Below are positions 1 to 62,431 of a stretch of DNA of 64,000 nucleotides, piece after piece. The position numbers and the translations under genes are program-made. The notes under the pieces are model-generated. The model was given only the letters and a program-made list of their open reading frames with translations. It did no database searches and was not told where the DNA came from. Source of the DNA: an uncultured Candidatus Saccharibacteria bacterium. GTDB taxonomy: Bacteria > Patescibacteriota > Minisyncoccia > Phycocordibacterales > WO2-35-19. The DNA lies in NCBI GenBank assembly GCA_964589445.1, contig CAZPQX010000004.1, positions 17,632 to 81,631 of the forward strand, given 5' to 3'. The first letter of the stretch is position 1; every line of letters starts with the position of its first letter.

Positions 1-219
1 AACTACCCAGACGATTGGTATAAAGGCAAAGTTTCAACAAAAGACTTCGTAGAAAAAGTAGACTTAATACAAAATCTTTTTTATAGGATCGGCGACCTAT
101 CAGATTTAGCAAATGAGGATATAGATGTGATAGATATTAAGTCGTCAAAAGACGATTCACATGTAGTATTCCGAAATAAAAACGACGGGTTTTTATGGAT
201 TCTTAGGATAACTGACTAA
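1..219 (+). CDS. Partial CDS (3' end, 72 codons) of an unknown protein; convergently overlaps the yidC 3' end by 27 nt
   Basis: Frame 1 is open from the window edge to TAA at 217-219 (...DGFLWILRITD*). No recognisable motifs. Confidence 0.3.
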   Translation, partial: NYPDDWYKGKVSTKDFVEKVDLIQNLFYRIGDLSDLANEDIDVIDIKSSKDDSHVVFRNKNDGFLWILRITD

Positions 220-918
220 ACCTCTCTTTATATACATATCTTGAAGTACACTCACAACATTACTTACAAACCAATATAGGGCTACTATACCCGAGATTTG
301 CCAGGATATAAAGAATACTACGCCCGGCATAACGTATTTCATTTGTTTTGACATCATTTTGGAAAATTCTTCGGATGTTGATGGTGTTTTGGAGTCACCT
401 ATAGAAACAGGGCTAGAATTACTCATCTGCCAATAAGTACTTGCCGATGCAAGCACAGCGAGCAAAAGGCTCTTTTTTGAAACATCAAGAATCCCTAGAA
501 AAATCATGGATATATTTTCTGGAATTTTCACAAAAGAATACAATATACTTGTATCAACATTTGGTAGACCTGATCTGAAAAAGATATAGTAAAGAGAGAA
601 AACAACGGGTATTTGTATAAGAAGAGCGAAAACACTAGAGAGTGGGTTTATTTTGTTTACTTTATAAAACTCCATCACCTTCAGAGCCTGTTCTTGGCTG
701 TCTTTATATTTTTCTTTTATGGAATTTAGTTCCCCCTCTTTTTCTTTCATTTTAACCTGAGTAACAACAGTCTTTTTAGTGAGAGGGTAGAGTACGAACT
801 TAACCAAAATAACTAAAATAACTGCAGCTAATCCAGCATCAACCGAAAATTTGTCTATTATAAAAATAAAGAAATTATAAAGGGGGGTATATACTATTGT
901 TTTGAAGAAATCTATCAT
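193..918 (-). CDS. yidC: Membrane protein insertase YidC (short Oxa1-type)
   Basis: 241 aa with multiple TM segments and a charged loop (KMKEKEGELNSIKEKYKD). Sits directly downstream of rnpA in the conserved rpmH-rnpA-yidC order next to dnaA. Confidence 0.85.
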   Translation of the reverse strand: MIDFFKTIVYTPLYNFFIFIIDKFSVDAGLAAVILVILVKFVLYPLTKKTVVTQVKMKEKEGELNSIKEKYKDSQEQALKVMEFYKVNKINPLSSVFALLIQIPVVFSLYYIFFRSGLPNVDTSILYSFVKIPENISMIFLGILDVSKKSLLLAVLASASTYWQMSNSSPVSIGDSKTPSTSEEFSKMMSKQMKYVMPGVVFFISWQISGIVALYWFVSNVVSVLQDMYIKRGLVSYPKNP

Positions 919-1245
919 TTAAATTAAGTTTGATTCTTTTAATATTGAACTTACATTATCAAAAACTTTTGCTTGAGTATCAACTTTTGTTTTAAAAGCA
1001 AAATTTCCAATTATATTTTCTTTTAAGTTTGGCCACAAAATTTCTAGACTACGGTAACCTTGGCGCCTCATTCTATTCCTATCTACAGCATTCTTGGCTA
1101 TTTTTTTAGAAACAGAAAAAGAAAATTTACTATTATTTAGATTTTTCTTAAATCTAAAATTAAGAACTGAGTTTGATTTAAAAAAAGCCCCTTTAGACAA
1201 AGAAGGGAAGTCCTCCTTCGACATTCTTTTGAGCTTAGAAAGCAT
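919..1245 (-). CDS. rnpA: RNase P protein component RnpA
   Basis: Basic protein with the RNR-type motif (AVDRNRMRRQGYRSL). The track ORF runs to 1305, but its first 20 codons overlap rpmH in another frame. The likely start is the ATG at 1243-1245 (MLSKLKR...), 1 nt after the rpmH stop. Confidence 0.75.
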   Translation of the reverse strand: MLSKLKRMSKEDFPSLSKGAFFKSNSVLNFRFKKNLNNSKFSFSVSKKIAKNAVDRNRMRRQGYRSLEILWPNLKENIIGNFAFKTKVDTQAKVFDNVSSILKESNLI

Positions 1246-1246
1246 T

Positions 1247-1381
1247 TTAAACTGATATTTTGCTCCTACCTTTTCTTCTTCTCTCCTGCAAAACCTTTTT
1301 ACCACTAGTTGATTTGCTTCTTTTTAGGAAACCGTGCTTCTTAGACCTTTTTCTTTTTTTGGGTTGGTAAGTTACTGACAT
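1247..1381 (-). CDS. rpmH: Ribosomal protein L34
   Basis: Not in the ORF track (44 aa). My translation of the minus strand gives [44 protein letters not shown], which matches the L34 consensus MKRTYQPS.RKR...HGFR.RM.T..GR.VL..RR.KGR..L. Confidence 0.85.
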
Positions 1382-1525
1382 TTGTATTTACTTAATAAAC
1401 GAATCTTGTATAAAGTTGTTATTCGCACATTATAAACAAAATTGTCTATAAAAACAAGTTCCGCCAAAATAATTTAAATATATAATTGAGGCATCCAAAA
1501 ATTATTTGGTTAACGCAAAAAAAGA
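1382..1525. promoter_or_regulatory. AT-rich rpmH/dnaA divergent intergenic region (putative dnaA promoter, possibly part of oriC)
   Basis: 144 bp of very AT-rich spacer between divergent rpmH and dnaA. No perfect DnaA box was seen. Confidence 0.3.
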
Positions 1526-2866
1526 ATGGATACTCAAGAACTTTGGAACGATATCTTGGTTAAGATAGAATCCTCAGTATCAAAAGCCAATTTTGCCACT
1601 TGGTTTAAAGACACAAAGATACATGGCTTTGAAAATGGAGTAGTTTATTTAAGCGTTCCAAACACTTTCGTAAAAGAGTGGCTCACTAAAAAATTTCACC
1701 AGATTATACTCAAGTTTTTGAGAGAATCTTCTGAATCAATAAATGCTTTAGAGTATGTAATCAAAGAGGAGAGTAGTGCCAAGAAACACTATATACCTAC
1801 AAAAGCACAAGCAACAAAAGAACTTCCTTTATCTGATTGTTATGTAAACAAAGACGATAATCTAAACCCAAGATACACTTTTGAGTCTTTTGTAGTTGGA
1901 CCTTTCAACGAACTTGCTTATGCAGCAGCTCAGGCAGTCATAAAAAACTTAGGAGTTGCTTATAACCCATTTTTTATATGGGGAAATACAGGACATGGCA
2001 AAACTCACATGATCCAAGCAATAGGCAATGCAGTAAAGAGTGCTTACCCAGACAAAAAGATACTTTATTTTAATTCAGAAAAGTTTATAAATGACTATGT
2101 CACCTCTGTTCAAGCAAACAAAGTAACTCAATTCAAGGATAAATATAGGAAATATGACATGCTTATCATGGACGATGTGCAATTCCTCTCAGGAAAAGAA
2201 AAGACTCAAGAAGAGTTATTCCACCTTTTCAATATAATGAAGGATAGCAACAAACATATTGTATTCTCTTGCGATAAACACCCAAACTTCGTAACTGGTT
2301 TAGAAGATAGGCTAAAATCTAGGTTTGCTGCTGGTATGGTTATTGATATTCCTCCACCAGACCAAGAGTCTAGAGTGGCGATAATAAAGAAAAAATGTGC
2401 CAGCATAAACCTATTTCTAGAAGACAACATAATCGAATATTTAGCTGACTCTATAAAAGGTAATATTAGAGACCTTGAAGGTGTTATAAACCTTATAGTT
2501 TGCCAAACAGAGGCTAAAAATAGGTCACTATGGATAAACGAGATAAAGGATTTGGTAAAAAACAGTATAAAACAAAAGAAACTCCTTTCTTATAAAGAAG
2601 TAGTAAAGATAATTTCAGATTTCTATAAAATAGAAGAAGGTTCTATTTATGAAAAGACTAGAAAAAAGGAGATAATAAAACCAAGACAGATAATAATGTA
2701 TATATTGAGAGAAGACTTCAATATATCTTATCCTTCAATAGGAGAAAAGCTTGGTGGTAGAGACCATACTACTGTCATACACTCCTGTGAAAAAATAAAA
2801 ACAGAGATGAAAATGGACCCAATACTTCTAAAGGAGCTTCAAGAAATAAGATCTTTGATAGGTTAG
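1526..2866 (+). CDS. dnaA: Chromosomal replication initiator DnaA
   Basis: Walker A motif GNTGHGKTHM, AAA+ core (DDVQFL), C-terminal DnaA-box-binding helix-turn-helix. Followed by dnaN. Confidence 0.95.
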   Translation: MDTQELWNDILVKIESSVSKANFATWFKDTKIHGFENGVVYLSVPNTFVKEWLTKKFHQIILKFLRESSESINALEYVIKEESSAKKHYIPTKAQATKELPLSDCYVNKDDNLNPRYTFESFVVGPFNELAYAAAQAVIKNLGVAYNPFFIWGNTGHGKTHMIQAIGNAVKSAYPDKKILYFNSEKFINDYVTSVQANKVTQFKDKYRKYDMLIMDDVQFLSGKEKTQEELFHLFNIMKDSNKHIVFSCDKHPNFVTGLEDRLKSRFAAGMVIDIPPPDQESRVAIIKKKCASINLFLEDNIIEYLADSIKGNIRDLEGVINLIVCQTEAKNRSLWINEIKDLVKNSIKQKKLLSYKEVVKIISDFYKIEEGSIYEKTRKKEIIKPRQIIMYILREDFNISYPSIGEKLGGRDHTTVIHSCEKIKTEMKMDPILLKELQEIRSLIG

Positions 2867-3082
2867 GTGTTTAAAACCTGTAGATAACTTGTTATTTATC
2901 TGGTTAGAAACTGTTGCAAAGTAAGTCATTTTTGGATAAAAATTAGATAGAGGCTTTTATTCAACCAGTTTATTAACAGTTATCAACAACCACTAGTCTA
3001 AATAACCTTTATGGTTTAAGGTTTAAAGTAGTAATCCACAAATCCACAGCCTTTATATAGTCCTTGTATTAAAAATATAGAA
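2867..3082. promoter_or_regulatory. dnaA-dnaN intergenic region with a DnaA-box-like 9-mer cluster; candidate oriC
   Basis: One-mismatch matches to TTATCCACA: ttatcaaca (2979-2987), taatccaca (3032-3040), aatccacag (3041-3049), and ttatccaaa on the minus strand (~2931-2939). AT-rich. Confidence 0.4.
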
Positions 3083-4189
3083 ATGAAAATAAAAATAGAG
3101 AAAAACAAAATAGAGTCTCATATCCAAAAAGTTTCTAGATTGGCTGGTAAACACCTGACACTACCCGTGTTGTCATGTGTTTATATTGAGGCTAATTCTC
3201 AAAAATTAATCTTTAAATCTACAAATTTAGATGTTGGTCTCGAGATTAGTATAAAGGCGGACGTTATTGAAGAGGGTAATATAGCAGTACCGGCGGCTAT
3301 ATTACTAGGTTCACTACAGTCTATAAAAGAAAATGACATTGTAATTGAAACTAATGATAATAATTTAAAAATATCATCTACTAAAAATTCTGTGGTTATA
3401 AAATCTATGCCACATGAAGACTTTCCTAGTATCCCTGTTATAAATAAAGAAGACAATCTAAAATCAATAAAAATAAATGCTAAAGATTTGATGCTTGGTT
3501 TTAAGTCAGTTTGGTATAGCTCATCAAATTCAAATATAAAACCAGAACTAAGTAGTGTTTTTGTTTATACTGAAGATTCAAAATTAGTATTCGTATCCAC
3601 AGACTCTTTTAGATTGGCTGAAAAAAGAGTAAATACAAAAGTCGATAGTGATTTTCCTCAAACTCTCATACCTTACAAAAATGTATCAGAAATCTTAAAG
3701 CTTTTTGAAGACTATGCAGGAGATATAGATATCTTGTTTGATAAAAATCAAGCTGCATTTATGGCTCCAAATATATACCTTGTCTCTAGGTTGGTTGATG
3801 GATCTTTCCCTGATTACAAACAAATAATACCTAAAGTATTCACTACTAAAGCTATCTTACTAAAGGCAGATCTTTTAAATTCCATAAAAGCTTCAAATTT
3901 ATTTTCTGACTCTTTAAATCAGGTCAGGATAAAAATAAAACCAAACGATAAGGATTTATCCATAGAAGCCAAAAATAATGACGTAGGAGAGTATAAGGAG
4001 TCTTTGAGAGCTAATTTAGAAGGGGATGATATAGAAATCAACTTCAATAATAAATATATTATAGATTCATTTCAGTCCATATCAGGAGACAGTGTTACTC
4101 TTGAATTTGGAGGAACAAATAAACCCTTGATAATAAAAGGATCTTCAGATAATAGTTTTATGTATATGGTGATGCCTATGAATAGATAA
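3083..4189 (+). CDS. dnaN: DNA polymerase III beta sliding clamp
   Basis: 368 aa with a three-domain clamp-like repeat structure, immediately downstream of dnaA. Confidence 0.9.
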   Translation: MKIKIEKNKIESHIQKVSRLAGKHLTLPVLSCVYIEANSQKLIFKSTNLDVGLEISIKADVIEEGNIAVPAAILLGSLQSIKENDIVIETNDNNLKISSTKNSVVIKSMPHEDFPSIPVINKEDNLKSIKINAKDLMLGFKSVWYSSSNSNIKPELSSVFVYTEDSKLVFVSTDSFRLAEKRVNTKVDSDFPQTLIPYKNVSEILKLFEDYAGDIDILFDKNQAAFMAPNIYLVSRLVDGSFPDYKQIIPKVFTTKAILLKADLLNSIKASNLFSDSLNQVRIKIKPNDKDLSIEAKNNDVGEYKESLRANLEGDDIEINFNNKYIIDSFQSISGDSVTLEFGGTNKPLIIKGSSDNSFMYMVMPMNR

Positions 4190-4190
4190 T

Positions 4191-4439
4191 ATGTTAGGTA
4201 TATCAAATTTTCTTAAAAAGTTTATTGTTATTCAAAAAAACAATGAAGATATTTTTTTGAATATATTAAAAACAATAAAAGAATTCACAGGTATTGAACT
4301 TAATAAAAGTCATATAGAGATAAAAGGGGATAATCTATATTTCAAAATAAAACCAGCAGTAAAAAATGCTATTTTTCTAAAAAAAGACTCCATAGAGTCT
4401 TCCTTTAAAAACAATAAAATTTTTTTAAAAATAAAATAA
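4191..4439 (+). CDS. Small Lys-rich hypothetical protein (82 aa) downstream of dnaN; possibly DUF721/DciA-like (speculative)
   Basis: ORF starts 2 nt after the dnaN stop. Position matches the small proteins often found after dnaN/recF. No motif confirmed. Confidence 0.35.
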   Translation: MLGISNFLKKFIVIQKNNEDIFLNILKTIKEFTGIELNKSHIEIKGDNLYFKIKPAVKNAIFLKKDSIESSFKNNKIFLKIK

Positions 4440-4442
4440 TTA

Positions 4443-6575
4443 TTATTGATTAACCACAAACGGGTTATCTTGATGTAGATTGTTTTGTTGCGCCCAAATT
4501 CTTACGGGGTATTCCCATCTTTCAAACTGTGAATCTTCACTAGGATTTTCTGGAATTTCTCCTTTAGGATCATCTTTTTTTACCCAATTAAGTATTGTGT
4601 GCACACCCCCCGTTACAATCCTTTCGTTTCGTGTTGATGTACTATAAACTCCACCTTGCCATATTCCTTCTAAAACTGGTTTAACTCCTTTTTCTTCTAT
4701 TAGAGGTGATTCGAATTGTTCTGAAGGTAGCTTTGTAAGTGCTCTATCCATAAAAGCTCTCCACATAGGTGCCACTATATATCCAGCAACTCTTTTTTCC
4801 ATAGATGTATTGTCGTTGTTTCCTGCCCAAGCACCCACTGCTATGTTTGGAGTATACCCAATTATCCAAGCGTCTTTATAGTCGTTTGTGGTACCAGTTT
4901 TTACAGCTACATCTGTGTTGGGGAAGTTTAATACCGAAGTTTGTCCATATGCAGGTGTCCTCGCTACGTTATCTGAAAGCACATCTGAAATTTTTAATGC
5001 TATTTCTTTATCTAAAACTTCCTTAGAAGAGTTGTCCGATTCTTCTATTACTTCTCCAGTCTTATCTTTTATTTCTAAAATAGAGTCTGTAGTTGCCTTT
5101 ACTCCATTGTTTGCAAAAACTCCATAAGCAGAAGTAAGTTCTAGTGGGGTAACTTCACCACCTCCAAGTACTAGTGTTAGACCATAGTCTCCTTTATTGC
5201 TAAGAGAGAGTATCCCCATATCTCTAGCCAATCTTATTGATTCGTTTAATCCGGCGAGGTAGAGCACTTTTACAGAGGGTATGTTTAGGGATTGAGCCAA
5301 GGCATTTCTGAGTGTTATAGGGCCTCTAAACAGCCCATCATAATTTTCTGGAGAATAACACCCGTTTCCCATAGTCATATCATTTGGGGCACATTTAGTA
5401 GAAAATTGCGTTTTAAGGTCAAATACTACTGTATCTGGTGTGTATCCTTTTTTAAATGCTTCTGCATAAACAAAGGGTTTAAAGGTTGAACCAGGCTGTC
5501 TTTTTGCTAATGTCACGTTGAATGCACCGTCTATTTCTTTATCAAAATAATCCCTGGAACCAACCATGGTCAATATTTCTCCTGTTTTAGGGTCCACAGC
5601 TACTATCGCAGCGTTTTCTGCATTGAACTTTTCTTTATTCTCTTTTGCATAATCAAAAGCTATTTCTTCTGCTATTTGTTGTAATTCGTAATTTAGAGTT
5701 GTTTTGACTCTTAGACCACCAGTGTTTATTATTTCTTCCCCATACTTATTTTTTATTTGCTCTAAAACATAAAATACAAAATGTGGTGCTTTTATACTAG
5801 AATCATTCTTTTTTAAGAATTCAACTTTTTCTTTTTTTGCCGAATCATATTCTTCTTGTGTTATAAAACCACTCTCAAGCATTTCTGATAACACAAGATT
5901 TTTTCTCTCATCAAGCCTGTCTTTATTTGGCCCATAAGGGGAGTAGAAACTAGGTGCTTTAGGTAGAGCTGCAAGGTAAGCAGCTTCGCTTAAAGTTACT
6001 TCTGAAGCACTTTTACCGAAAAAGCTTTCTGATGCCTCTTCTACACCATAAATAACTCCTCCATAAGGTATTTCATTTAAATACATAGAAAGGATTTCTT
6101 CTTTTGTTGATACTTGTTCAAGCTTGATTGCTAGTACCCACTCCTTTAATTTTCTAGAAATATCTTTATCGTTTGTAAGTATTGAATTTTTTACAACTTG
6201 CTGTGTAATTGTAGAGCCACCCTGGCTAAAATCAAATGTTAGGATATTTACCAAAATTGCTCTTAAAAATGCAGTAGGCTTAACACCTATATGGCTATAA
6301 AACTCTTTATCTTCTATGGCTATCGTGGCGTTTTTTATATTTTTGGATATTTCTTCTATAGGAACAATACTTCTGCGTATGTTGCCACCGGTGTCGTATA
6401 GAAGTATATCTCCAGTCCTATCATATATTTTGGTTGATTCGGTGACCCGCCTCTCTCTTATAGACTCTGTGGTAGGTACTTTAAATGTACTTATCCATAT
6501 AAGTATAGAAGCCCCAAGGATGAGACTTAAGGAAATAAATAATAAAGCAAGGTTCTTTTTTAACATAACTATCAT
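4443..6575 (-). CDS. Class A penicillin-binding protein (bifunctional transglycosylase/transpeptidase, PBP1A family)
   Basis: N-terminal TM; GT51 motifs (EDKEFYSHIGV, QGGSTITQQVVKN); transpeptidase SXXK (STFKPFVY) and KTGT. Confidence 0.85.
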   Translation of the reverse strand: MIVMLKKNLALLFISLSLILGASILIWISTFKVPTTESIRERRVTESTKIYDRTGDILLYDTGGNIRRSIVPIEEISKNIKNATIAIEDKEFYSHIGVKPTAFLRAILVNILTFDFSQGGSTITQQVVKNSILTNDKDISRKLKEWVLAIKLEQVSTKEEILSMYLNEIPYGGVIYGVEEASESFFGKSASEVTLSEAAYLAALPKAPSFYSPYGPNKDRLDERKNLVLSEMLESGFITQEEYDSAKKEKVEFLKKNDSSIKAPHFVFYVLEQIKNKYGEEIINTGGLRVKTTLNYELQQIAEEIAFDYAKENKEKFNAENAAIVAVDPKTGEILTMVGSRDYFDKEIDGAFNVTLAKRQPGSTFKPFVYAEAFKKGYTPDTVVFDLKTQFSTKCAPNDMTMGNGCYSPENYDGLFRGPITLRNALAQSLNIPSVKVLYLAGLNESIRLARDMGILSLSNKGDYGLTLVLGGGEVTPLELTSAYGVFANNGVKATTDSILEIKDKTGEVIEESDNSSKEVLDKEIALKISDVLSDNVARTPAYGQTSVLNFPNTDVAVKTGTTNDYKDAWIIGYTPNIAVGAWAGNNDNTSMEKRVAGYIVAPMWRAFMDRALTKLPSEQFESPLIEEKGVKPVLEGIWQGGVYSTSTRNERIVTGGVHTILNWVKKDDPKGEIPENPSEDSQFERWEYPVRIWAQQNNLHQDNPFVVNQ

Positions 6576-7993: not shown

Positions 7994-8027
7994 AAACAAA
8001 AACACCCTGACTACCAGGGTGTTTTTG
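7994..8027. terminator. Rho-independent terminator hairpin shared by convergent genes
   Basis: aaaaacaccctg-acta-ccagggtgtttttgtt: 9-bp GC-rich stem followed by a T-run, directly after the tyrS stop. Confidence 0.6.
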
Positions 8028-8043
8028 TTTGATTACATTACTT

Positions 8044-15813: not shown

Positions 15814-15824
15814 CTAGTAAATAA

Positions 15825-15850
15825 AAAACGCAAACCGCTTTGCGTTTTTT
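15825..15850. terminator. Intrinsic terminator (bidirectional position between tRNA-Lys and doxX)
   Basis: aacgcaaa-ccgc-tttgcgtt: 8-bp stem followed by a T-run. Confidence 0.5.
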
Positions 15851-15852
15851 AG

Positions 15853-16257
15853 CTACAAAGGCAAATCTATTGCGAATGCTCCGGCACCTGATAAGAGGAG
15901 AGAGAGGAGGATGGTGAAAACCAACATATAGAAGACAATGTTTCTTTTTAGGATACTTGGGTCTTTGTACTCAAGATAAATTTCTATAAACGTGATAATT
16001 CCCAATACTAAGGCTGCGATTTGAGTATAGAACCCAGCAATAAGCATAATACCTCCAATTATTTGAATTAATGATAGTATTTTGGTTGCTACTTCAGGGC
16101 GGGGTATCCTGAGTGTTTTGAAAGATATAAGCCACCTCTCATTTTCTTTTTTGAATAATAGAATGCCCAGATCTATAAAAACGAAACCAACTATTAATCT
16201 TAATAAAAATGGTGCAAGAAGCGAATATGTGAGCAAGTCTGGAAATGGATTTAACAT
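15853..16257 (-). CDS. DoxX family membrane protein
   Basis: 134 aa, four TM helices, DoxX-like hydrophobic profile. Confidence 0.6.
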   Translation of the reverse strand: MLNPFPDLLTYSLLAPFLLRLIVGFVFIDLGILLFKKENERWLISFKTLRIPRPEVATKILSLIQIIGGIMLIAGFYTQIAALVLGIITFIEIYLEYKDPSILKRNIVFYMLVFTILLSLLLSGAGAFAIDLPL

Positions 16258-16275
16258 AAGTGTAGTATAGCAATT

Positions 16276-16881
16276 ATGGCAGAAAATTTAAATATGGTTG
16301 TTATATTGAACAATATAAGGAGCTCGGAAAATGTCGGCTCTATTTTTCGTACCGCGGATGCCTTTGGTGTTAAGAAAATATACTTGTGCGGCTACACTCC
16401 TAGTCCCTTAGATAGGTTTAATAGGAAAAACACCAAACTCATCAAAGCTTCTTTGGGTGCGGAGGAGTTTGTGGAGTGGGAAAAGTGTGAAAATTTGGAA
16501 GAAGTTATTGAGAAAAATAGAATCAACTTAAAAAATTCTGAAAATTATGTCTCCTCGCTCAGCACGGATAAAAGCCTGCTGGCTTTTTCCTCTGCTCGGC
16601 TCGTCAGCCTGCGCAAGGCATGCTCGGAGAATAATTTTCAGAATTTTTTGATCGTTGGAGTAGAGCAGAGTGAAGACTCAATTGATTATCGTGAATTAAA
16701 AAAGTCATGTCTCGCATCTCATAAAAATAACATCGCTTTGGTATTTGGAAATGAGGTAGAAGGGTTGTCAGAAGAAGATTTGAAACTTTGTGATGTTATT
16801 GCCGAAATCCCTATGCAGGGTAAAAAAGAATCTTTAAATGTTGCCGTATCTGTGGGTATAATTCTTTCAAGTCTAAACTAA
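16276..16881 (+). CDS. SpoU/TrmH family RNA 2'-O-methyltransferase carrying an in-frame ~33-aa repeat-element insertion
   Basis: SpoU motifs NVGSIFRTADAFGV, LVFGNEVEGLS, IPMQGKKESLNVAVSVGIIL. The inserted segment NYVSSLSTDKSLLAFSSARLVSLRKACSENNF is encoded by the repeat at 16544-16643. Confidence 0.75.
   Translation: MAENLNMVVILNNIRSSENVGSIFRTADAFGVKKIYLCGYTPSPLDRFNRKNTKLIKASLGAEEFVEWEKCENLEEVIEKNRINLKNSENYVSSLSTDKSLLAFSSARLVSLRKACSENNFQNFLIVGVEQSEDSIDYRELKKSCLASHKNNIALVFGNEVEGLSEEDLKLCDVIAEIPMQGKKESLNVAVSVGIILSSLN
16544..16643 (+). repeat. Palindromic repeat element copy 1 (~100 bp, terminal inverted repeats aaaattat/ataatttt), inserted in-frame in the trmH-like gene
   Basis: ~92% identical to the reverse complement of 18434-18538. 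GC-richer than its surroundings. Internal hairpin aaaagcc-tgct-ggctttt. Confidence 0.7.
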
Positions 16882-17831
16882 TAATTGACTGTAAAAGTAT
16901 CAACTATAAGTCCGTTTTTGTCGTAGAGGTTTACCTTTTCGCGTTTTTCTCTCCATAGAGGTCCAAATTTATTCAAGAAAATACGATATTCATTTCCGGG
17001 GAAATTTGTATCACTAAAATGTTTGGCTACACATGAATTGTAGTTTATCTGTGTTTGCATATAAGTTTTGCAGGAAGAAGATACTGTATCGGGCAAGTCT
17101 CTTATATACTCACTATTTACGGTTGTGCAACGAGACAGGCTTTCAAGTAGGTCTATACACTCATCATTCCTGTCTAAATCATTTGAAAATTTAGGAAGTT
17201 TGTCATCTTCTATTAGAGGACATTCGGTTGAGAGGCTTGGATAAAATGTCCTATTTTCTTCAAAGTATCCAGTACATTTGTTTGTTCTAAACGATATGCC
17301 TATTGGTGAAAAACCTTTTGTTATTATTGCTCGGTCTCCGTTTTTGAGTACCACGTTGCTTTCATTTTTAGAAAAAGGGAAGGGGAGAAGGGAGGCCCCA
17401 CCTATAAAAACAAAATTTCCAGTAACTTCACTTTTAAAATACCAACCGGTAATATTTACCTCTTCGTCTTTACCAAGATTTGTGTAGAGGTATATGTACT
17501 CTTTGCTGGGGTCGTCATCCCACGACTTGGAGAGGCTCGAAAGTGTCACTTTGCCATAATAAGGTGAACGGGTGCTTTCTTCTATTTTTTTCTGTACTTC
17601 TTCTTCTAGGTTTTCAATTTTTCTCTCTGTATTTTTTATTTCTTCTTCTGGTGTTTGATTTGAATTTTGATTTCCAAATCCAAAGAAAGAATTATTATTG
17701 CTTTGTATGGAAGATGGGTTGTTGCTACTAGTTGCTTCTCTATTTTCAGCTGCTTTTTTTAGTGGGGCATATGCAATGCCGAGGATGATAAACCCTATGA
17801 GTATTACTAATGCTGGTGAAGCTTCTTTCAT
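16878..17831 (-). CDS. Hypothetical membrane-anchored protein with N/S/Q-rich linker, coiled-coil and a C-terminal Lamin-tail-domain (LTD)-like Cys-containing domain
   Basis: N-terminal TM, NSNQ low-complexity region, EEE/K-rich heptads, and LTD-like segment EEVNITGWYFKSEVTGNFVF...VLKNGDRAIITKG. Confidence 0.55.
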   Translation of the reverse strand: MKEASPALVILIGFIILGIAYAPLKKAAENREATSSNNPSSIQSNNNSFFGFGNQNSNQTPEEEIKNTERKIENLEEEVQKKIEESTRSPYYGKVTLSSLSKSWDDDPSKEYIYLYTNLGKDEEVNITGWYFKSEVTGNFVFIGGASLLPFPFSKNESNVVLKNGDRAIITKGFSPIGISFRTNKCTGYFEENRTFYPSLSTECPLIEDDKLPKFSNDLDRNDECIDLLESLSRCTTVNSEYIRDLPDTVSSSCKTYMQTQINYNSCVAKHFSDTNFPGNEYRIFLNKFGPLWREKREKVNLYDKNGLIVDTFTVNY

Positions 17832-18856
17832 TTAAATAATTTTTGATGAACAGGGCAGAAGTGACTACTTCTAGTTTTGACCACTATTCTTTCTATTATA
17901 CCAGAGCATTTATTTCTTGGACATTTTTTGCCTTTATTTCCGTATGCTTTATGGAAGTTTTGGAAACCTCCCTTCTCACCAAAAATATTTCTATAGTCTG
18001 ATTTGGAATCGCCGCCTTTGCCTATTGAAAATTTCAAAATCCTTTTCATTTCTTTGTAAATTTCTGACAGTTTGGTTTCTGGTACTTTGTTTGCGGGGGA
18101 GAGTGGGTGCACTCCTGTTTGCCAAAGTATTTCATCCGAGTAAATATTTCCTATACCAGCTATTATTTCTTGATCTAGGAGCACTGTTTTTATGGGTCTC
18201 ATTTTGCCCATTTCTTTTATTCTTTTTTTGAAATCCTTAATGTCTATTTTGAGAGCATCTGGGCCGAGTAGTGAAAGGCTCGCGTGGGTGTGTAGGGAGT
18301 CACTTTTAAATATAGAAACACTCGCAAATCTTCGCATGTCTGAAAGTACCAAATGTTTGCCGCACGAGAGGGAGGCTACAAAATGTATGTATTGGTTGTA
18401 GGGATCCTGAAGAGGGCCTTCTTCTATGGTTTTCCAAAAATTATTTCCTGAGCGTGCCTTTCGCAGGCTGACGAGCCGAGAAGAGGAAAAAGCCAGCAGG
18501 CTTTTATCCGTGCTAAGCGAGGGAACATAATTTTTGGAAACACGAAAGGGATATTTTTGGAGTTCATATTTCCCATACATCAAATGCCCGGTCATTTTTA
18601 TGTGTATAGAAATAGTGTACCCAGACGATAGATGGATCAAAATATTTTTACCAAGTCTTTCTACATTTTCTATTTTTGATCCGGTAGCCAACTTTTTTAA
18701 ATTTTTATAATGCTTCTCGTTCTTTATATTGTCTCTCTCTCCGTGACTTGTTGAAACGTGAAAATCAGACCATATTTCTAGTATGGTTTTGCCCATGGCA
18801 ACTTTTTTTAACCCTGTGACCGTTGTGTGTACTTCTGGAAGTTCAGGCATACCCAA
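17828..18856 (-). CDS. mutM: Formamidopyrimidine-DNA glycosylase (Fpg/MutM) carrying an in-frame repeat-element insertion
   Basis: N-terminal MPELPEVHTTV with catalytic Pro2/Glu3; C-terminal zinc finger CPRNKC...CPVHQ. Insert NYVPSLSTDKSLLAFSSSRLVSLRKARSGNNF. Confidence 0.85.
   Translation of the reverse strand: MGMPELPEVHTTVTGLKKVAMGKTILEIWSDFHVSTSHGERDNIKNEKHYKNLKKLATGSKIENVERLGKNILIHLSSGYTISIHIKMTGHLMYGKYELQKYPFRVSKNYVPSLSTDKSLLAFSSSRLVSLRKARSGNNFWKTIEEGPLQDPYNQYIHFVASLSCGKHLVLSDMRRFASVSIFKSDSLHTHASLSLLGPDALKIDIKDFKKRIKEMGKMRPIKTVLLDQEIIAGIGNIYSDEILWQTGVHPLSPANKVPETKLSEIYKEMKRILKFSIGKGGDSKSDYRNIFGEKGGFQNFHKAYGNKGKKCPRNKCSGIIERIVVKTRSSHFCPVHQKLFK
18434..18538 (-). repeat. Palindromic repeat element copy 2, inserted in-frame in fpg (opposite chromosomal orientation to copy 1, same sense relative to host gene)
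   Basis: Its reverse complement aligns base-for-base with 16544-16643 (~8 mismatches per 95 nt), including the terminal aaaattatgt.../...ataatttt ends. Confidence 0.7.
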
Positions 18857-18897
18857 AAGTTAATAGATAATAGAAGATAGTCAATAGTTTAGTTTCT

Positions 18898-20253
18898 CTA
18901 TTTTTCAGTTTTCAAAACTTTTATAAGCTCCTCTCGTGCGACTGTCGCATCGTCCCATTTTTGTTTAGTGCCGTTTGGACCCATTATATAAGGGTCTGTA
19001 CCTTTACCAGTAATCAAAACAGCTGTTTTTTCTTTTTCTTGCATGCTCTTAGCTTTTGTTAGGGCAGAGGCCACGGCAGTTCTTCTGTCCATTATTATTT
19101 CTACTTTTTTCTTGTCTTGTATTCCAGAAAGCATTTCCTCGAGTATTTGGCGCGGATCTTCGTCGTAAGGATCTTCGTTGGTAAGTATTATTTCATCGCA
19201 ATATTCTCCTGCTATTTTGCCCATTTCTGGTCTTTTCCATTTATCTCTTCCACCACCCGTGTTTCCAAGTACACAAATCTTTTTTTGGTTTTTATAAGTT
19301 TCGTACACTGCTTTTAGGGAATCTGGGGTGTGGGCATAATCTACAACCACATCAAAGTCTTGTCCTTCACTTATTTTTTCCATTCTGCCTCTTATAAAAT
19401 TTATTCCTTCAAGCGACTTTTTTATAATCTCCTCTTTTATTCCTATAAATTTAGCAAGGGCGATACAACCGAGCATGTTTGATACATTGAATATTCCGGG
19501 TAGATTACTCCTTATAACTGTTTTACCAACTTGAAATATAGAACCACTTTCATCTGCTTTTATATTTATAGCATCGCTAAGAGAGTAGGGGATTTTATTT
19601 TTTATTCTTAGAGAAAGAAACTTTTCTGATTCCTTGTCGTCTATGTTTGCTACTAGTACTTTGCCCCCGTAATCAAAACAAAAATTTTTATCAGTGTGGG
19701 AACCCTTTAGGGAGGAACTGTAAAAAATTTTGTTTTGATTACGGGGTTCTAGCTCCCTCCCTATATTCAGTTTTGCATCGACGTATTTTTCATAAGAGCC
19801 ATGTGACTCAATATGCTCAGGTGCCAGGTTGGTAAAAATGAGTGCATCTAAAAAGAGAAATTTATGGCCAAATCTGAGCGTTGCCTCACTGCTTATTTCG
19901 AGGATTGCAAATCTCGCGCCTTTATTTAGAGCTTCTCTCAATAATCTTTGTGTAAAAAATCTACCCCTAGTTGTCATTTTTGAGAGATTTTTCCTTTCTT
20001 CCCCAACAACTTTTGTTCTTATGGTATTTGAAAGTACTGTTTTTTCGCCACATTCTTCTAAAATCGCATTCATTATTTCTGTGGTTGTAGATTTACCCTT
20101 GGTACCAGTCACCGCTATCACATACATTTTTTTAGCAGGGAAGCGGTATATGATCGCTCCAAGTAGAGAGAGTGTGAAGTGGTAGTAGGGTTGTAACTCC
20201 TTGAAAATTTTTTTAGGAATAATTTTTCTGCCTAAATCTAATATCTTTTCCAT
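18898..20253 (-). CDS. Mur ligase family protein (probably MurE-like UDP-MurNAc-tripeptide ligase)
   Basis: ATP-binding P-loop AVTGTKGKSTTTEIM; Mur ligase middle and C-terminal domains; GKGTDPY near the C-terminus resembles MurE GKGHE.Y. Confidence 0.6.
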   Translation of the reverse strand: MEKILDLGRKIIPKKIFKELQPYYHFTLSLLGAIIYRFPAKKMYVIAVTGTKGKSTTTEIMNAILEECGEKTVLSNTIRTKVVGEERKNLSKMTTRGRFFTQRLLREALNKGARFAILEISSEATLRFGHKFLFLDALIFTNLAPEHIESHGSYEKYVDAKLNIGRELEPRNQNKIFYSSSLKGSHTDKNFCFDYGGKVLVANIDDKESEKFLSLRIKNKIPYSLSDAINIKADESGSIFQVGKTVIRSNLPGIFNVSNMLGCIALAKFIGIKEEIIKKSLEGINFIRGRMEKISEGQDFDVVVDYAHTPDSLKAVYETYKNQKKICVLGNTGGGRDKWKRPEMGKIAGEYCDEIILTNEDPYDEDPRQILEEMLSGIQDKKKVEIIMDRRTAVASALTKAKSMQEKEKTAVLITGKGTDPYIMGPNGTKQKWDDATVAREELIKVLKTEK

Positions 20254-24971: not shown

Positions 24972-25016
24972 GCCAAACCTAAGCCTAAATTAGGACATAA
25001 ACTTTTATGAAATAAA

Positions 25017-25046
25017 ATAACCCTATTGACAAACAGGGTTATTTTA
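25017..25046 (+). terminator. Intrinsic terminator of the giant secreted-protein gene
   Basis: aaccct-attgacaaac-agggtt followed by atttta. Confidence 0.55.
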
Positions 25047-25114
25047 TGATATTATATTAGGTAGATACCAGCGGTTAAACCGTCGGTCAAGATTTTTGAT
25101 ATTAGGAGACTACC

Positions 25115-36873: not shown

Positions 36874-36915
36874 ATATGAAAAATGTCGAGTAAAAATACT
36901 CGACATTTTTCATAT
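36874..36915. repeat. Perfect 19-bp stem / 4-nt loop palindrome abutting the tRNA-Arg 3' end
   Basis: atatgaaaaatgtcgagta-aaaa-tactcgacatttttcatat; both arms exactly complementary. Confidence 0.6.
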
Positions 36916-37946: not shown

Positions 37947-40900
37947 ATGTCTCAAGAACCTATAAAAAAATCAGAAGCTGCTGAAAGGGAAGAGCAAATA
38001 CTCAAATTTTGGCAAGAAAATAAAATATTTGAAAAGACTCTCCAAAAACCTTCTCCAAAGGGAGAATTTGTTTTTTATGATGGGCCACCATTTGCAACGG
38101 GACTGCCTCATTATGGTCATATGCTTGCCGGCACAATGAAAGATGTGATTCCTAGGTATAAGACCATGAATGGTTATCATGTAAATCGTGTTTGGGGTTG
38201 GGACTGTCACGGGCTACCAATTGAAAACTTGGTAGAAAAGGAGCTCGGTCTCGAAACGAAAAAAGATATAGAAAAATATGGTATAGATAAATTTAATAAA
38301 GCAGCTAGAGAAAGTGTGCTTCGATATGATGCAGAATGGAAAAAGTTTGTACCTAGGTTTGGAAGGTGGGTTGATATGGATACTCCATACAAAACTATGG
38401 ACTCCAAATATACTGAATCAGTATGGTGGTCTTGGAAGGAGCTTACTCAAAAAAATCTTGTTTACGAAGGATTTAAGGTGATGCCATACTGCCCTCATTG
38501 TGGTACGACCCTCTCCAATTTTGAGGTCAACCAAGGATATAAGGATATTTCTGATATTTCTGTATATGTAAAATTTAAAATAAAAAAATTTCCAAATAGC
38601 TATTTTGTGGCTTGGACCACCACCCCCTGGACTCTTCCGGGCAACACGGCTTTGGCTGTAGGTGCTGAAATAGAATATGTAGAAGTAGAAGTAAAGGATC
38701 AGGTTTTGGTTTTAGCAAAAGAGAAACTTTCTTTAATAAAAGAAGAATACAAAATCCTCGCAACTCATAAGGGTAGTGAAATGGTGGGTATGGAATATGA
38801 ACCAGTCTTTAATTATTTCGAAAGCCAAGATATAAAAAACAAAGAAAATGGATGGAGGGTGGTGGCGGGTGATTTCGTGACCACTGAAGATGGTACGGGC
38901 ATTGTGCATATTGCACCTGCTTTTGGTGGCGATGACTATGAGTTATCACAGAAAGAAAACCTACCGATTATTGTGCATGTTGATCTCGAGGGTAAGATGA
39001 AACCGGAAATCAAAGATTTTGCCGGAATGCTTGTTAAACCAAAGAGTAATGATGAAAAAGAAAGATTGGCGACAGATATTTCAATAATAAGATATTTGCA
39101 GGATAGAGGTAGTTTTTTTGATAAAGAAAAAATAAAACACTCTTATCCTCACTGTTGGAGATGTGATACACCTCTCTTAAACTACGCCACCTCTTCCTGG
39201 TTTATAAAGGTGACTGATCTTAAAGATAAAATGCTCAGTCTAAATTCAAAAGTAAGTTGGGTGCCAAGTGATATTGGGGAAAATAGATTTGGTAAGTGGA
39301 TAGAGGGTGCAAGAGATTGGGCCGTATCAAGGTCGCGTTATTGGGGCGCACCAATACCTGTATGGAAGTGTAACTCGTGCAAAGCGGTAGAAACCCTTGG
39401 TTCTTTTGAAGAACTAAAAAATAAAATCCACAAGAGTGGCAACAAATACTTTACTATACGCCACGGTGAGGCCGAGCAAAATATAAAAGATCTAATAAAT
39501 TCTGAGCTTTCAAACAATATTTATCATTTGACTGAAGAGGGTAGGAAGAGAGTTTTGGAAGCTAGTGAAAATATAAAAAAAGAAAAAATAGATTTTATAA
39601 TCACTTCTCCATTTTTAAGGTGTAAGGAAACTGCTGAGATAGTGCGAGGGGCTTTAGGTCTCGATGCTTCTTGTGTCCAAGAAGACGAGAGGCTTGCTGA
39701 ATTCAAGAAGGGCCCAGGATTTGAAGGTAAAAGTTGGCAAGAATATTGGGGACTGTTCTCTAGCACCAAAGAGAGATTTGAAAAGTCTCCTGACGGTGGA
39801 GAAAATCTTACTGATCTAAATAAAAGAGCAGGAGAATTTATTTATGATTTAGAGAAAAGATACTCAGGAAAAAATATTTTGATTGTGAGTCATCAGGGTC
39901 CTATTGCCTCTATGCATATGATTGCTGAAGGTGCTGATGCCGGTAGATTTATAGAGGCCAAAGAAAAGCAGATTTATACATTTGGTTTTGCTGATTTTAG
40001 AAAATTGGATTTCGCCCCGCTACCTCACAATGAAAATTATGAACTCGATGTGCACCGACCCTTTATTGATGAGGTAAGGTGGTCTTGTGAATGTGGAGGT
40101 GAGTTTGAGAGGATAAAAGAAGTGTTTGATACTTGGTATGACTCTGGTTCGATGCCCTATGCTTCAGTCCATCATCCATTTGAATCAGAAGAAACATTTT
40201 TAGGTAAGAAAAAATTTCCTTTCCCGGCTGATTTTATAGCAGAAGGTTTAGATCAGACGCGAGGTTGGTTTTATACTTTGCTTGTACTAGGCGCGGGTAT
40301 TTTTAGTAAGTCTCCTTACGACAACGTTATAGTAAATGGCATTGTGCTTGCAGAAGATGGTCAGAAAATGAGTAAAAAATTAAAAAACTATCCTGATCCA
40401 ATGGATATGGTCAATAAGTATGGCGCTGATACCATAAGGTATTACATGACAGCTTCTCCTGTCGTTAGGGCAGAAGACTTAGCTTTTTCTGAAAAAGGCT
40501 TGGACGAGGTAAGTAAAAAGCTTATCAAGCGACTAGGGAACGTGTGTGAATTTTATTTAATGTATGGCGATAGTTCTGTGACAGCAAATAATGAGTCTCC
40601 TAAGATAATAGACAGGTGGATTATTTCTCGCTTGAGCCAAGCAGGGAAGGATATAGATATGTACTTAAGTAAATACGAACTTGAAAAAGCTGCTAGGCCG
40701 GTCATGGATTTTGTGGAGGATTTGTCTACTTGGTACTTAAGAAGATCGCGCGACAGATTTAAGGCGGAAGATCAAGAAGAAAAGAAATTTGCTCTCGCTA
40801 CTATGAGGTTTATTTTGCTCGAACTTAGTAAATATATGGCACCTTTCACACCATTTTTTGCGGAAGACTTATATAGAAGTGTAAGGGGTGATAAAGAAAC

Positions 40901-41432
40901 ACAAAGTGTCCATCTTTGCGATTGGCCGGAAGATGTAAAAATAGAAAAAGACGTACTTGAAGGAATGAAGGAGGTAAGGAGGCTCGTCTCTGTTGCTTTA
41001 GAAAAAAGGAATGTCGCCGGAGTGAAGGTTAGACAACCCCTACAAAAAGTGACTCTTAAAAACTTGAAATTTGAAGGCAAAAAAGAATATATCGATTTAA
41101 TACGAGACGAAGTAAATGTAAAGGAAGTTTTGTTTAATGAAAATCTTGAAGAAGAGATAGAGCTGGACACTCTAATAACAGAAGGGCTCAAAAAAGAGGG
41201 GATGGAAAGAGATATTATAAGGCTAATCCAAGAATTAAGAAAAACCAGCAACTTAAACCCTTCCGATTCAAAAAACCTTTTAGTAGATACAGATGAAAAT
41301 GGAAAACGTTTCCTTGAAGATGCAGCAGAAAGAATCAAAACACCTACCAACATAAATAGTTTTATTTTTGAAGCCAACGATGGTCAAGAAAATCTTATCG
41401 AAAATATGAAATTTAAATTCAAGATTAGTTAG
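37947..41432 (+). CDS. ileS: Isoleucyl-tRNA synthetase with an inserted histidine-phosphatase (PGAM-like) domain
   Basis: HIGH-type PFATGLPHYGHML, CP1 editing region, Zn-binding CWRCDTPL, KMSKKL (KMSKS), anticodon-binding C-terminus. 1161 aa versus ~920-1040 for typical IleRS. Extra ~220 aa at nt ~39420-40040 carry RHGEAEQN, SPFLRCKETA and SHQG motifs. Confidence 0.9.
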   Translation: MSQEPIKKSEAAEREEQILKFWQENKIFEKTLQKPSPKGEFVFYDGPPFATGLPHYGHMLAGTMKDVIPRYKTMNGYHVNRVWGWDCHGLPIENLVEKELGLETKKDIEKYGIDKFNKAARESVLRYDAEWKKFVPRFGRWVDMDTPYKTMDSKYTESVWWSWKELTQKNLVYEGFKVMPYCPHCGTTLSNFEVNQGYKDISDISVYVKFKIKKFPNSYFVAWTTTPWTLPGNTALAVGAEIEYVEVEVKDQVLVLAKEKLSLIKEEYKILATHKGSEMVGMEYEPVFNYFESQDIKNKENGWRVVAGDFVTTEDGTGIVHIAPAFGGDDYELSQKENLPIIVHVDLEGKMKPEIKDFAGMLVKPKSNDEKERLATDISIIRYLQDRGSFFDKEKIKHSYPHCWRCDTPLLNYATSSWFIKVTDLKDKMLSLNSKVSWVPSDIGENRFGKWIEGARDWAVSRSRYWGAPIPVWKCNSCKAVETLGSFEELKNKIHKSGNKYFTIRHGEAEQNIKDLINSELSNNIYHLTEEGRKRVLEASENIKKEKIDFIITSPFLRCKETAEIVRGALGLDASCVQEDERLAEFKKGPGFEGKSWQEYWGLFSSTKERFEKSPDGGENLTDLNKRAGEFIYDLEKRYSGKNILIVSHQGPIASMHMIAEGADAGRFIEAKEKQIYTFGFADFRKLDFAPLPHNENYELDVHRPFIDEVRWSCECGGEFERIKEVFDTWYDSGSMPYASVHHPFESEETFLGKKKFPFPADFIAEGLDQTRGWFYTLLVLGAGIFSKSPYDNVIVNGIVLAEDGQKMSKKLKNYPDPMDMVNKYGADTIRYYMTASPVVRAEDLAFSEKGLDEVSKKLIKRLGNVCEFYLMYGDSSVTANNESPKIIDRWIISRLSQAGKDIDMYLSKYELEKAARPVMDFVEDLSTWYLRRSRDRFKAEDQEEKKFALATMRFILLELSKYMAPFTPFFAEDLYRSVRGDKETQSVHLCDWPEDVKIEKDVLEGMKEVRRLVSVALEKRNVAGVKVRQPLQKVTLKNLKFEGKKEYIDLIRDEVNVKEVLFNENLEEEIELDTLITEGLKKEGMERDIIRLIQELRKTSNLNPSDSKNLLVDTDENGKRFLEDAAERIKTPTNINSFIFEANDGQENLIENMKFKFKIS

Positions 41433-50215: not shown

Positions 50216-50235
50216 ATAAAATTCCAGTTTAAAAC

Positions 50236-50270
50236 AAAACACTCCCGGCTCTGCGGGAGTGTTTTGTTTT
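50236..50270. terminator. Intrinsic terminator after rpsR (bidirectional position with efp)
   Basis: cactcccg-gctctg-cgggagtg: 8-bp stem followed by ttttgtttt. Confidence 0.7.
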
Positions 50271-50315
50271 ACTTGTTTATATTTTTTAAACTGTCTCAAT
50301 CTTCAGTTTTTGTGA

Positions 50316-60324: not shown

Positions 60325-60350
60325 ATCTTTTTATTGTAAAAGGAAAAATC

Positions 60351-60383
60351 AAAAAATCCCTTCACGGGATTTTTTGATTTTTT
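60351..60383 (+). terminator. Intrinsic terminator after rplL
   Basis: aaaaaatccc-ttcac-gggattttttgattttttt. Confidence 0.7.
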
Positions 60384-62074: not shown

Positions 62075-62431
62075 TTTCGTTTCTGGATCGCCGAGAGACC
62101 TGCAATAAATGCTAGTTTCCCGGCGGTAGAGAAGATTTCAAGTTCGGAATGAGAGAATTTTGACAAATAAAAGCCACTGCAACATCGCTTTTCGATAGAC
62201 TTTGTTCTCTAAGGGTTAGCCCTAAGTGAGCGGAGCGAGTCGGAGGGGTCTTTGTTTGTTGTAAGTGGACAAAATCCCGTGACCTTTAATTTATTAAAGA
62301 TTTTACGGGAGTAAGGTAAGGTCCTATGCTGTTCAACACAGCGATAGGACAAATTGCCTTTTAAGTTTGGTCTTAAAAGGCAGGATAGAATGATGAATTT
62401 TCCTTTGCCGCCAATAGGGTAGGCTTGGAAA

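Follow-up and report, generated by a model that had tools for sequence, protein, structure and literature searches.

A candidate mobile hairpin repeat of the MITE/RPE kind inserted in frame into housekeeping genes of CPR bacteria

The stretch of DNA analysed in this study (64 kb in total, referred to as the window) carries two copies of a palindromic repeat, one inside a trmH-like gene and one inside fpg, and neither copy disrupts the reading frame of its host gene. We consider it reasonably probable that they represent a non-autonomous, hairpin-forming mobile DNA repeat of the MITE or RPE kind, which is read through as a disordered loop of the host protein. The nearest named relatives are Parcubacteria/Patescibacteria, and the repeat would belong to a superfamily distributed among Parcubacteria and related CPR bacteria. 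The features on which the following is based are located in the window as follows.

16276-16881, plus strand: host gene 1, a SpoU/TrmH-family RNA 2'-O-methyltransferase of 201 aa; the insert corresponds to residues ~85-121
16530-16649, plus strand: outer limits of copy 1, with perfect 19-nt outer arms
16535-16645, plus strand: element copy 1 (arms and core) inside trmH; covariance model R1, 125.4 bits, E 2.8e-28
16555-16625, plus strand: GC-rich core of copy 1, 71 nt, consisting of TCGCTCAGCAC, the P2 hairpin and TCTGCTCGGCTCGTCAGCCTGCGCAAGGCATGCTC
16570-16576 and 16581-16587 with the loop 16577-16580, plus strand: P2 hairpin of copy 1
17828-18856, minus strand: host gene 2, formamidopyrimidine-DNA glycosylase (Fpg/MutM), 342 aa as listed; the insert corresponds to residues ~105-140
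18430-18540, minus strand: element copy 2 (arms and core) inside fpg; R1, 116.1 bits, E 5.4e-26
18450-18520, minus strand: core of copy 2
19665-19746, minus strand: a third in-frame palindromic insert, of a short type, in a Mur-ligase ORF (18898-20253, minus strand)

The 26-mer GATAAAAGCCTGCTGGCTTTTTCCTC occurs at exactly two sites in the window (16567-16592 on the plus and 18483-18508 on the minus strand), with none expected in 100 shuffles; a repeat search returned an inverted pair of 108 nt (16536-16643 and 18432-18539) that is 88% complementary, and the two copies can be aligned across ~100 nt. This bears out the first-pass annotation of the window, which had placed one palindromic copy in each of the two genes. 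Searched over all 64 kb with filters off, the 111-nt covariance model R1 found these two copies only (125 and 116 bits), and the next best match remained below 20 bits. The density of canonical copies is modest, with 2 in 64 kb. Relative to their host ORFs both copies have the identical orientation and reading frame, in which they encode the peptides NYVSSLSTDKSLLAFSSARLVSLRKACSENNF and NYVPSLSTDKSLLAFSSSRLVSLRKARSGNNF, and the core is open in four of its six reading frames. Since the window begins at the origin region (rnpA, yidC, dnaA, dnaN), the two copies share a replichore, on which they point in opposite directions; a strict lagging-strand orientation rule like that of IS200/IS605 gets no support from this, which is a weak point with only two copies. 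Copy orientation in the window tracks the host genes and not the replichore.

As RNA, each copy folds into a long terminal stem enclosing a branched GC-rich centre. With -51.9 kcal/mol (z = -6.45) for copy 1 and -41.8 kcal/mol (z = -3.77) for copy 2, which carries uncompensated mismatches relative to copy 1, the predicted hairpins are stable, and the internal hairpin AAAAGCC-TGCT-GGCTTTT noted earlier is present at 16570-16587. The terminal inverted repeats exist as well, but are longer than the proposed aaaattat/ataatttt; in copy 1 they form a perfect 19-mer (16530-16548 and 16631-16649). The description of the whole segment of ~100 bp as GC-rich holds for the 71-nt core (56-59% GC in a window of 38%), whereas the arms reach only 25-28%.

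The two host proteins are readily recognized. TrmH matches Pfam PF00588 (1.7e-35) in two separate stretches, and its homologues in the PDB skip residues ~77-121; in the AlphaFold model, whose host fold is confident, residues 85-121 are coil with a pLDDT below 50, located between H74-83 and E125-129. Fpg, whose true start is probably the ATG giving MPELPEV, matches PF01149, PF06831 and PF06827 and has 58 residues where its PDB homologues have 6; its model, again with a confident host fold, shows residues 105-136 as coil with a pLDDT below 50 between E97-101 and E139-143. The inserts are thus predicted to form low-confidence coil between well-predicted secondary-structure elements of the host. 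The placement in surface loops anticipated by the first-pass annotation would agree with these models and with the lack of the segments in PDB homologues.

That the segments are insertions follows from a close relative that does without either of them. Among the Fpg orthologues, P0001 is the closest, with 91% identity across aligned columns and no such segment. Its contig (L004) shares synteny with the window (Mur ligase, fpg, LTD-like ORF, SpoU) and is empty at both sites: 120 nt (40 aa) are absent from trmH and 111 nt (37 aa) from fpg. As the empty sites have only ~80% identity with the window and alignment of the loops is poor, several junction models fit. Measured against this closest empty orthologue, the inserts are larger than the ~33 aa initially estimated. 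A second empty trmH allele (L023) lacks the same 120 nt. Orthologous trmH sites are thus polymorphic for presence and absence, being filled in the window and in L022 and empty in L004 and L023, and solved structures of TrmH and Fpg have no counterpart of the inserted segments. Together with the open frames, the empty sites and the PDB homologues uphold the claim of in-frame insertion into two unrelated housekeeping genes.

The third insert is not a canonical copy. Its 26-nt arms are 96% complementary, it folds with -39.6 kcal/mol, and 17 aa (the FYSSSLKGSHTDKNFCFDYG region) are missing in the L004 orthologue, but it matches the R1 model only weakly (18.8 bits). It is an element of this kind but from another sequence family, and counts among the diverged relatives of the repeat.

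Further copies were found well beyond the two genes. An exact-pattern scan of genomes yielded a third copy in a KsgA/RsmA ORF of a Saccharibacteria MAG (L002), which has the opposite orientation and is read in an antisense frame; two other hits of the same scan (L001 and L003) were chance matches. When metagenome contigs were scanned with a degenerate 24-mer from the core, 13 loci were obtained, comprising trmH genes with a copy at the same site as in the window (L007, L009, L011, L014, L018), copies immediately 5' of a gene (L006, L010, L015) and copies without a spanning ORF (L008, L012, L013, L016, L017). One fpg gene with a copy at the same site (L005) was reached via the Fpg orthologue P0002 and matches the 24-mer pattern too. 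The covariance model added diverged relatives in frame in a PolA-like ORF (L009) and a Tgt-like ORF (L015), in antisense in a 555-aa ORF (L013), and one more copy without a spanning ORF, and an exhaustive peptide-profile search contributed a Dus-like protein (P0124) and another TrmH-like protein. Only P0121 and P0124 were real in that search; two other hits were spurious and represent unrelated repeat proteins with a recurring PS[LI]SADG..[LI]AF[AS]S motif. No copy of the core was found in the viral contigs scanned. Although the 64 kb itself holds just two copies, the occurrence in ksgA, at metagenome loci and at extragenic sites answers the question of whether the repeat is confined to trmH and fpg.

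In every genic copy the host ORF stays open, the added length is a multiple of three, and the insert is free of stop codons in the host frame. This holds for at least eight host genes or sites and for both orientations; neither the frame nor freedom from stop codons would matter to an element that leaves the transcript or is skipped during translation. We regard it as very improbable that the segment is untranslated, whether excised from the transcript like an intron or bypassed by ribosomes in the manner of byp elements in yeast mitochondria. A compact and stable hairpin inside ORFs would suit such a reading, and introns in rRNA and tRNA genes of CPR bacteria (PMC13011429) lend it some plausibility, but the elements have no Rfam intron or ribozyme match and are far below the size of group I or group II introns.

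Most informative with respect to mobility is trmH, where a single site between ...LK(N) and (N)F.I.G.EQ was surveyed in the 120 closest TrmH orthologues. The canonical element occupies it in 12 of the 120 proteins, with three P2 variants, and a second subfamily (CTDIFLLKNSSCS.QS.SQG) in 8; short hairpin-type inserts (VRSQLLRKSR or GSQMLRISR) are found in 15 and the SSSLKGSH type in 2, the SSSLKGSH.D.NF peptide of the Mur-ligase insert filling the site in P0180 and P0191. Several others have arms-only footprints (LKNFSKNF), and the rest are empty or contain other inserts. At the DNA level, a small centre is enclosed by the same outer arms in a short-type allele (L019), little beyond A(n)T(n) is left in an arms-only allele (L020), and a subfamily-2 allele (L021) shows the same nested-hairpin design. 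In a host tree calculated with the insert masked, which is short and weakly resolved, insert classes are scattered (nearest-neighbour concordance 54/120 versus a shuffled mean of 48.7). Within the TrmH clade of the window, whose members share 74-81% amino acid identity, three alleles (L004/P0128, L023/P0129 and P0132) have no insert at this site, the window itself has the canonical element in sense, and P0126/L022 has a subfamily-2 element in antisense.

Scattered occupancy and the coexistence of empty, sense and antisense alleles in one clade indicate a hotspot and not an ancestral domain. Homologous sequence at the same position in orthologues, which the first-pass annotation had put forward as the mark of such a domain, does exist in many related TrmH proteins and some Fpg orthologues, and at first sight it favours a lineage-specific loop or domain ancestral to TrmH and Fpg, with gene conversion between neighbours accounting for the similarity of the trmH and fpg segments. 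However, the closest relative is empty at both sites, the insert class is uncorrelated with the host tree, the same DNA is found in antisense in ksgA as well as outside ORFs, and the peptide, which is predicted to be disordered, varies freely while the hairpin is kept. Copies in multiple genes, outside genes and in antisense effectively refute this reading, and we assign it hardly any probability.

The clearest trace of movement is found in L022. Its insertion of 126 nt is located between perfect 9-bp direct repeats of AAGATTTTT, a sequence that is single in the empty allele L023 at the same position of the gene, and the empty architecture is recovered once the element and one of the repeats are taken out. 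This is a textbook target-site duplication, which points to recent transposition within the superfamily. Around the 13 canonical copies, including both in the window, 9-mer target duplications were not above chance. The analogy with RPEs drawn in the first-pass annotation gains from this duplication in a sister subfamily, and from the additional copies in other genes, in both orientations and outside genes.

The structure of the element was derived from 13 non-redundant copies, which have in common a near-invariant framework of TCGCTTAGCAC...TCTGCTCGGCTCGTCAGCCTGCGCAAGGCACGCTC; the 24 nt of the search pattern are invariant by ascertainment and therefore uninformative on conservation. Each copy consists of a GC-rich branched core of ~71 nt, with the long P2 hairpin and a small 3' hairpin, and of AT-rich complementary arms of 15-25 bp. 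While pairing in P2 is kept, its sequence varies (AAAAGCC/GGCTTTT, AATTTTC/GAAAATT, AAAAGCT/AGCTTTT, ATTTCC/GGAAAT), and the outer stem of 15-25 bp has a locus-specific sequence. RNAalifold predicts 40 pairs, 21 of which show double compensatory changes, and 94.4% of cells are paired compared to 75.7% after shuffling (none of 500 shuffles reached the observed value) and to 31-57% after a shift of the partners by one to three columns. In L002 and L005, a change from T-A to C-G speaks for an alternative small hairpin, GGCY-CGTC-RGCC. Invariant nucleotides at the junctions and in the core combined with freely covarying stems are the reverse of the pattern in a classical MITE and resemble a functional structured nucleic acid.

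Identity between copies amounts to 15-95% in the arms and to 74-100% in the cores. The core of the window trmH copy is 94% identical to the fpg cores of the window and of L005 and 93% identical to the ksgA core of L002, compared to 83-86% for the trmH cores of L007 and L011; cores group by subfamily and not by host gene. Between the fpg genes of the window and L005 the core is 94% identical and the flanking host gene 71-72%; a core better conserved than the gene around it fits copies that are younger than the divergence of their hosts. Differences between close orthologous copies (L007 and L011), and between the fpg and trmH copies of the window, are uncompensated, which suggests decay in place. 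Taken together, the alignments indicate that it is the hairpin that is conserved and that the peptide changes freely. The idea of a structural peptide module is therefore unsupported, as the inserts are coil with a pLDDT below 50 and conservation lies in the hairpin.

Such covariation, together with the conservation of unpaired and junction nucleotides, is also what would be expected if the core were a functional structured RNA (or single-stranded DNA) module used by the host or a partner protein, e.g. in mRNA stability, processing or protein binding, which resides in 3' regions, is tolerated in ORFs, and for which mobility is secondary. At shared sites the core is conserved above the surrounding coding sequence, orientation in the window follows the host genes rather than the replichore, and copies outside ORFs are mostly found in sense orientation 4-13 nt past the stop codon of the upstream gene. 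We nevertheless consider a module of this type improbable. The closest relative does without both copies, both orientations occur, even at one trmH site, and uncompensated mismatches accumulate in close orthologous copies. Counts of G-U versus A-C mismatches in the stems favour neither strand, no Rfam match was obtained at E<=10 over 16300-18800 or at gathering thresholds across the whole window, and a terminator scan called no terminator-like site inside the elements. ARAGORN detected nothing tRNA-like in them.

The arm motif CTGAAAAATTC is common to L007, L011 and L012, and as L012 has no spanning ORF and yet shares its arms with trmH copies, the arms travel with the core. In fpg, however, the right arm AATAATTTTTGGAAA aligns with host sequence AATATTTATTGGAAG that is already there at the empty site, and this overlap includes a Trp codon conserved in all Fpg orthologues; the left arm is thus complementary to DNA that the host already had. 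The Mur-ligase insert behaves similarly, its 3'-side arm aligning with host sequence of the empty site. Simple cut-and-paste of arms plus core leaves this overlap in fpg and the Mur ligase unaccounted for. Insertion at A(n)T(n) quasi-palindromes, microhomology between arm and target, template switching, and recombinational transfer of filled alleles are possible processes in this context.

Some of these processes could act without a dedicated transposase. Filled alleles would then be taken up as DNA and pass between orthologous genes through homologous recombination, and template switching during replication (quasi-palindrome correction) would create or perfect hairpins where the sequence is rich in A(n)T(n). 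We regard this as unlikely. In its favour, the same site is filled in diverged trmH and fpg genes, the 3' arm overlaps existing host sequence in fpg and in the Mur ligase, canonical copies are without target duplications, and the window encodes RecA, RuvABC and components of a type IV pilus/T2SSE and no transposase. Left unexplained are the occurrence of one core both in unrelated genes and at extragenic positions, the different subfamilies and orientations at one site, and the perfect 9-bp duplication in L022; moreover, the arms shared between L012 and trmH copies show that arms move with the core.

A more speculative alternative, to which we give about as little weight as to the functional RNA module, takes the core as a recognition module for a CPR-specific enzyme and the arms as choosing the target by pairing with, or templating on, the host flank, i.e. 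as a site-preferring, partly programmable 'homing' hairpin transposon, or else takes the core as a dual-use structured RNA that is also translated. Arm-guided homing would account for repeated occupation of the trmH and fpg sites as well as for arms that overlap host codons.

If the repeat is a non-autonomous mobile element, as we favour, it would be moved in trans by an enzyme encoded elsewhere, with transposase-mediated movement of the canonical subfamily, and would land where A/T is abundant. A genic insertion in a small genome, densely filled with essential genes, would be kept only if it is a multiple of three bases, free of stop codons in the frame used and situated in a permissive loop. 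Genic copies would then be part of the host transcript and appear in the protein as a disordered loop of ~35-40 residues, and the hairpin would be retained for propagation and not for the benefit of the host. None of the 50 ORFs in the window with 110 aa or more matched a transposase or recombinase family in Pfam, a result that covers the 64 kb, nor did an autonomous partner with matching ends turn up.

The genomes of CPR/Patescibacteria are very small and are usually discussed in terms of loss. If a selfish hairpin superfamily colonizes essential genes of these bacteria and is carried as extra protein loops, the inserts would inflate and diversify CPR proteins and explain lineage-specific 'insertions' in alignments of CPR proteins, and they could cause chimeric assemblies and pseudogene calls. 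With its empty, arms-only, short and full alleles, the trmH hotspot offers a natural system to follow both the movement of such an element and its absorption by a protein.

In the literature on CPR, Patescibacteria or Parcubacteria together with palindromic, MITE or RPE elements we found no earlier description of such a repeat, but coverage was incomplete and prior reports are possible; these taxa are also absent from a 2024 review of prokaryotic MITEs. Among known systems, REP/REPtron elements are palindromes of 20-40 bp that have a GTAG or CGTC head and are associated with a RAYT gene (PMC3733652). Our element differs from these in its ~111 nt and its branched core, and no Y1/HUH transposase is encoded in the window. 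The GC-cluster or byp elements of yeast mitochondria are GC-rich hairpin repeats in the protein-coding genes of an AT-rich, reduced genome, and because byp elements are bypassed by the ribosome, they need not keep the frame. The invasion of protein-coding genes by a GC-rich hairpin repeat is shared with the element described here, whose copies, however, always keep the frame; in addition, byp genomes are organellar and eukaryotic.

A similar size class is represented by the betaproteobacterial BRE and the pneumococcal BOX, RUP and SPRITE repeats, which are internal to genes (BRE, inside about nine protein genes) or extend the ends of ORFs, SPRITE being a terminator-like hairpin repeat of ~105 bp (PMC3184786). 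Extragenic copies near stop codons are a further point of resemblance. Our element differs in its taxon, in having no terminator signature, and in a much higher incidence in essential genes compared to extragenic sites, within the copies sampled.

With bacterial MITEs such as Correia/CREE, ERIC, RUP, Nezha and QMITE1, which are occasionally fused in frame with ORFs (PMC3184786; PMC10969869), the element shares its small size, the lack of a transposase ORF of its own, inverted-repeat ends, presence/absence polymorphism and, in one member (L022), a target-site duplication. Most copies are nevertheless without a recognizable duplication, and whereas classical MITEs derive from a recognizable IS element and conserve their terminal inverted repeats, no parent IS was found here and variation is greatest in the arms, which are complementary in every copy but differ in sequence from one copy to the next (15-95% identity).

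The closest resemblance in behaviour is to RPEs, which are interspersed palindromic repeats of 100-150 bp that occur between genes and in protein-coding genes, form several families and have proliferated in a lineage-specific manner (PMC1779305; see also PMC3184786). In-frame fusions with housekeeping genes unrelated to one another are frequent, and the host fold is predicted to accommodate them (PMC10969869). The repeat described here has a comparable size (a model of 111 nt and inserts of 111, 120 and 126 nt), is palindromic with a stable hairpin, and is found in frame in unrelated genes (trmH, fpg, ksgA, PolA-like, Tgt-like, Dus-like and Mur ligase) as well as in extragenic copies; short or decayed forms at the trmH site are reminiscent of the short RPE-7-like insert in PheT of Rickettsia (PMC1779305). 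It is distinguished by its host phylum (Parcubacteria/CPR and not Rickettsiales), by a low density of canonical copies (2 in 64 kb), by a conserved GC-rich branched core with variable arms, and by the trmH hotspot, which is used by several subfamilies in both orientations and includes one member with a 9-bp target duplication. We therefore classify the element as RPE-like and not as an RPE, the likeness being one of behaviour, with no relationship in sequence expected, and on this analogy a phenomenon so far known mainly from Rickettsia would extend to a distant phylum.

The Mur-ligase gene of the window (ORF 18898-20253) also proved to carry a palindromic insert that leaves the reading frame intact:

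19665-19746, minus strand, short-type palindromic insert with 26-nt arms that are 96% complementary

The insert encodes the peptide FYSSSLKGSHTDKNFCFDYG, and the same peptide type occupies the TrmH hotspot, the trmH site that holds different inserts among orthologues, in the two homologues P0180 and P0191. The Mur-ligase orthologue of the syntenic relative L004 lacks the 19665-19746 insert, so that each of three neighbouring genes of the window (trmH, fpg and the Mur-ligase gene, within less than 4 kb) contains a hairpin insert and the closest relative has none of the three. Gene order in this region (window 15853-20253), i.e. DoxX, trmH, an LTD-like ORF, fpg and also the Mur ligase, is kept among the diverged Parcubacteria contigs L004, L019, L020 and L023; this conserved order makes the region a convenient marker block for the comparison of insert states.

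The window TrmH is identical to an entry of the protein collection (P0125). For the window Fpg (17828-18856) the collection contains no identical entry, the best match being 81%; because of its insert, the source annotation may have left fpg uncalled or flagged it as pseudogenic. The TTG start listed for fpg (MGMPELPEV) is probably wrong, because the ATG start yields MPELPEV, in agreement with all orthologues.

Several further hairpins are present in the window:

62685-62819, hairpin within the gene for 23S rRNA, whose arms (24 nt, 96% complementary) enclose an AT-rich centre of 87 nt
36874-36915, 50230-50271, 60344-60382, 7994-8030, 25012-25047 and 15817-15856, perfect or near-perfect hairpins

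The first of these lies within the Rfam LSU match at 62424-64000 and probably represents an rRNA expansion or an intervening sequence; its sequence shows no relationship to that of the element. The other six (16-19 bp, 4-6-nt loops, A-rich/T-rich arms) look like bidirectional terminators and account for the weak covariance-model matches.

Two other regions of the window deserve mention:

1-4450, chromosomal origin region, with yidC and rnpA on the minus strand, dnaA (1526-2866) and dnaN (3083-4189) on the plus strand, and an AT-rich palindromic stretch after dnaN (4221-4448)
37947-41432, plus strand, class I tRNA-synthetase ORF of 1161 aa with tRNA-synt_1 and Anticodon_1 domains, possibly IleRS

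Embedded in the synthetase ORF is a histidine phosphatase domain (His_Phos_1, residues 504-668), which is an unusual domain insertion.

In other contigs, local element density can far exceed that of the window, as illustrated by L009 (Parcubacteria GW2011_GWB1_35_5) with three elements in less than 7 kb:

702-812, 4173-4287 and 6398-6508, canonical or diverged elements

One is canonical and located in trmH, one is diverged and in-frame in a PolA-like ORF, and one is diverged without a spanning ORF. The 156-aa protein P0121 consists of the C-terminal half of TrmH, including the element, joined to an unrelated N-terminal sequence, and may be a chimeric assembly with its join at the repeat. L006 (3297-3407) has the element and the downstream gene in common with L010 (1062-1172) and L015 (1428-1538), but the left flank and the left arm differ, which means that either synteny is broken or an assembly was joined precisely where the element lies. 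On L021, a bAvd-family gene (1890-2141) is found about 1.2 kb from a trmH carrying subfamily 2, the second element type at this site; bAvd is an accessory protein of diversity-generating retroelements, and this proximity is probably coincidental.

In the alignment of Fpg orthologues, the loop that carries the element in the window also holds other GC-rich-looking in-frame inserts, e.g. PPTPSPKERGFKK... and PNPLPFARGGSRGRG, and a short insert of the NPSTSSGQ[AV]K type recurs at two other Fpg loops, twice within P0009 (orthologues with other inserts: P0009, P0012, P0013, P0014, P0015, P0023, P0029, P0047 and P0083). These inserts suggest additional repeat families in CPR proteins.
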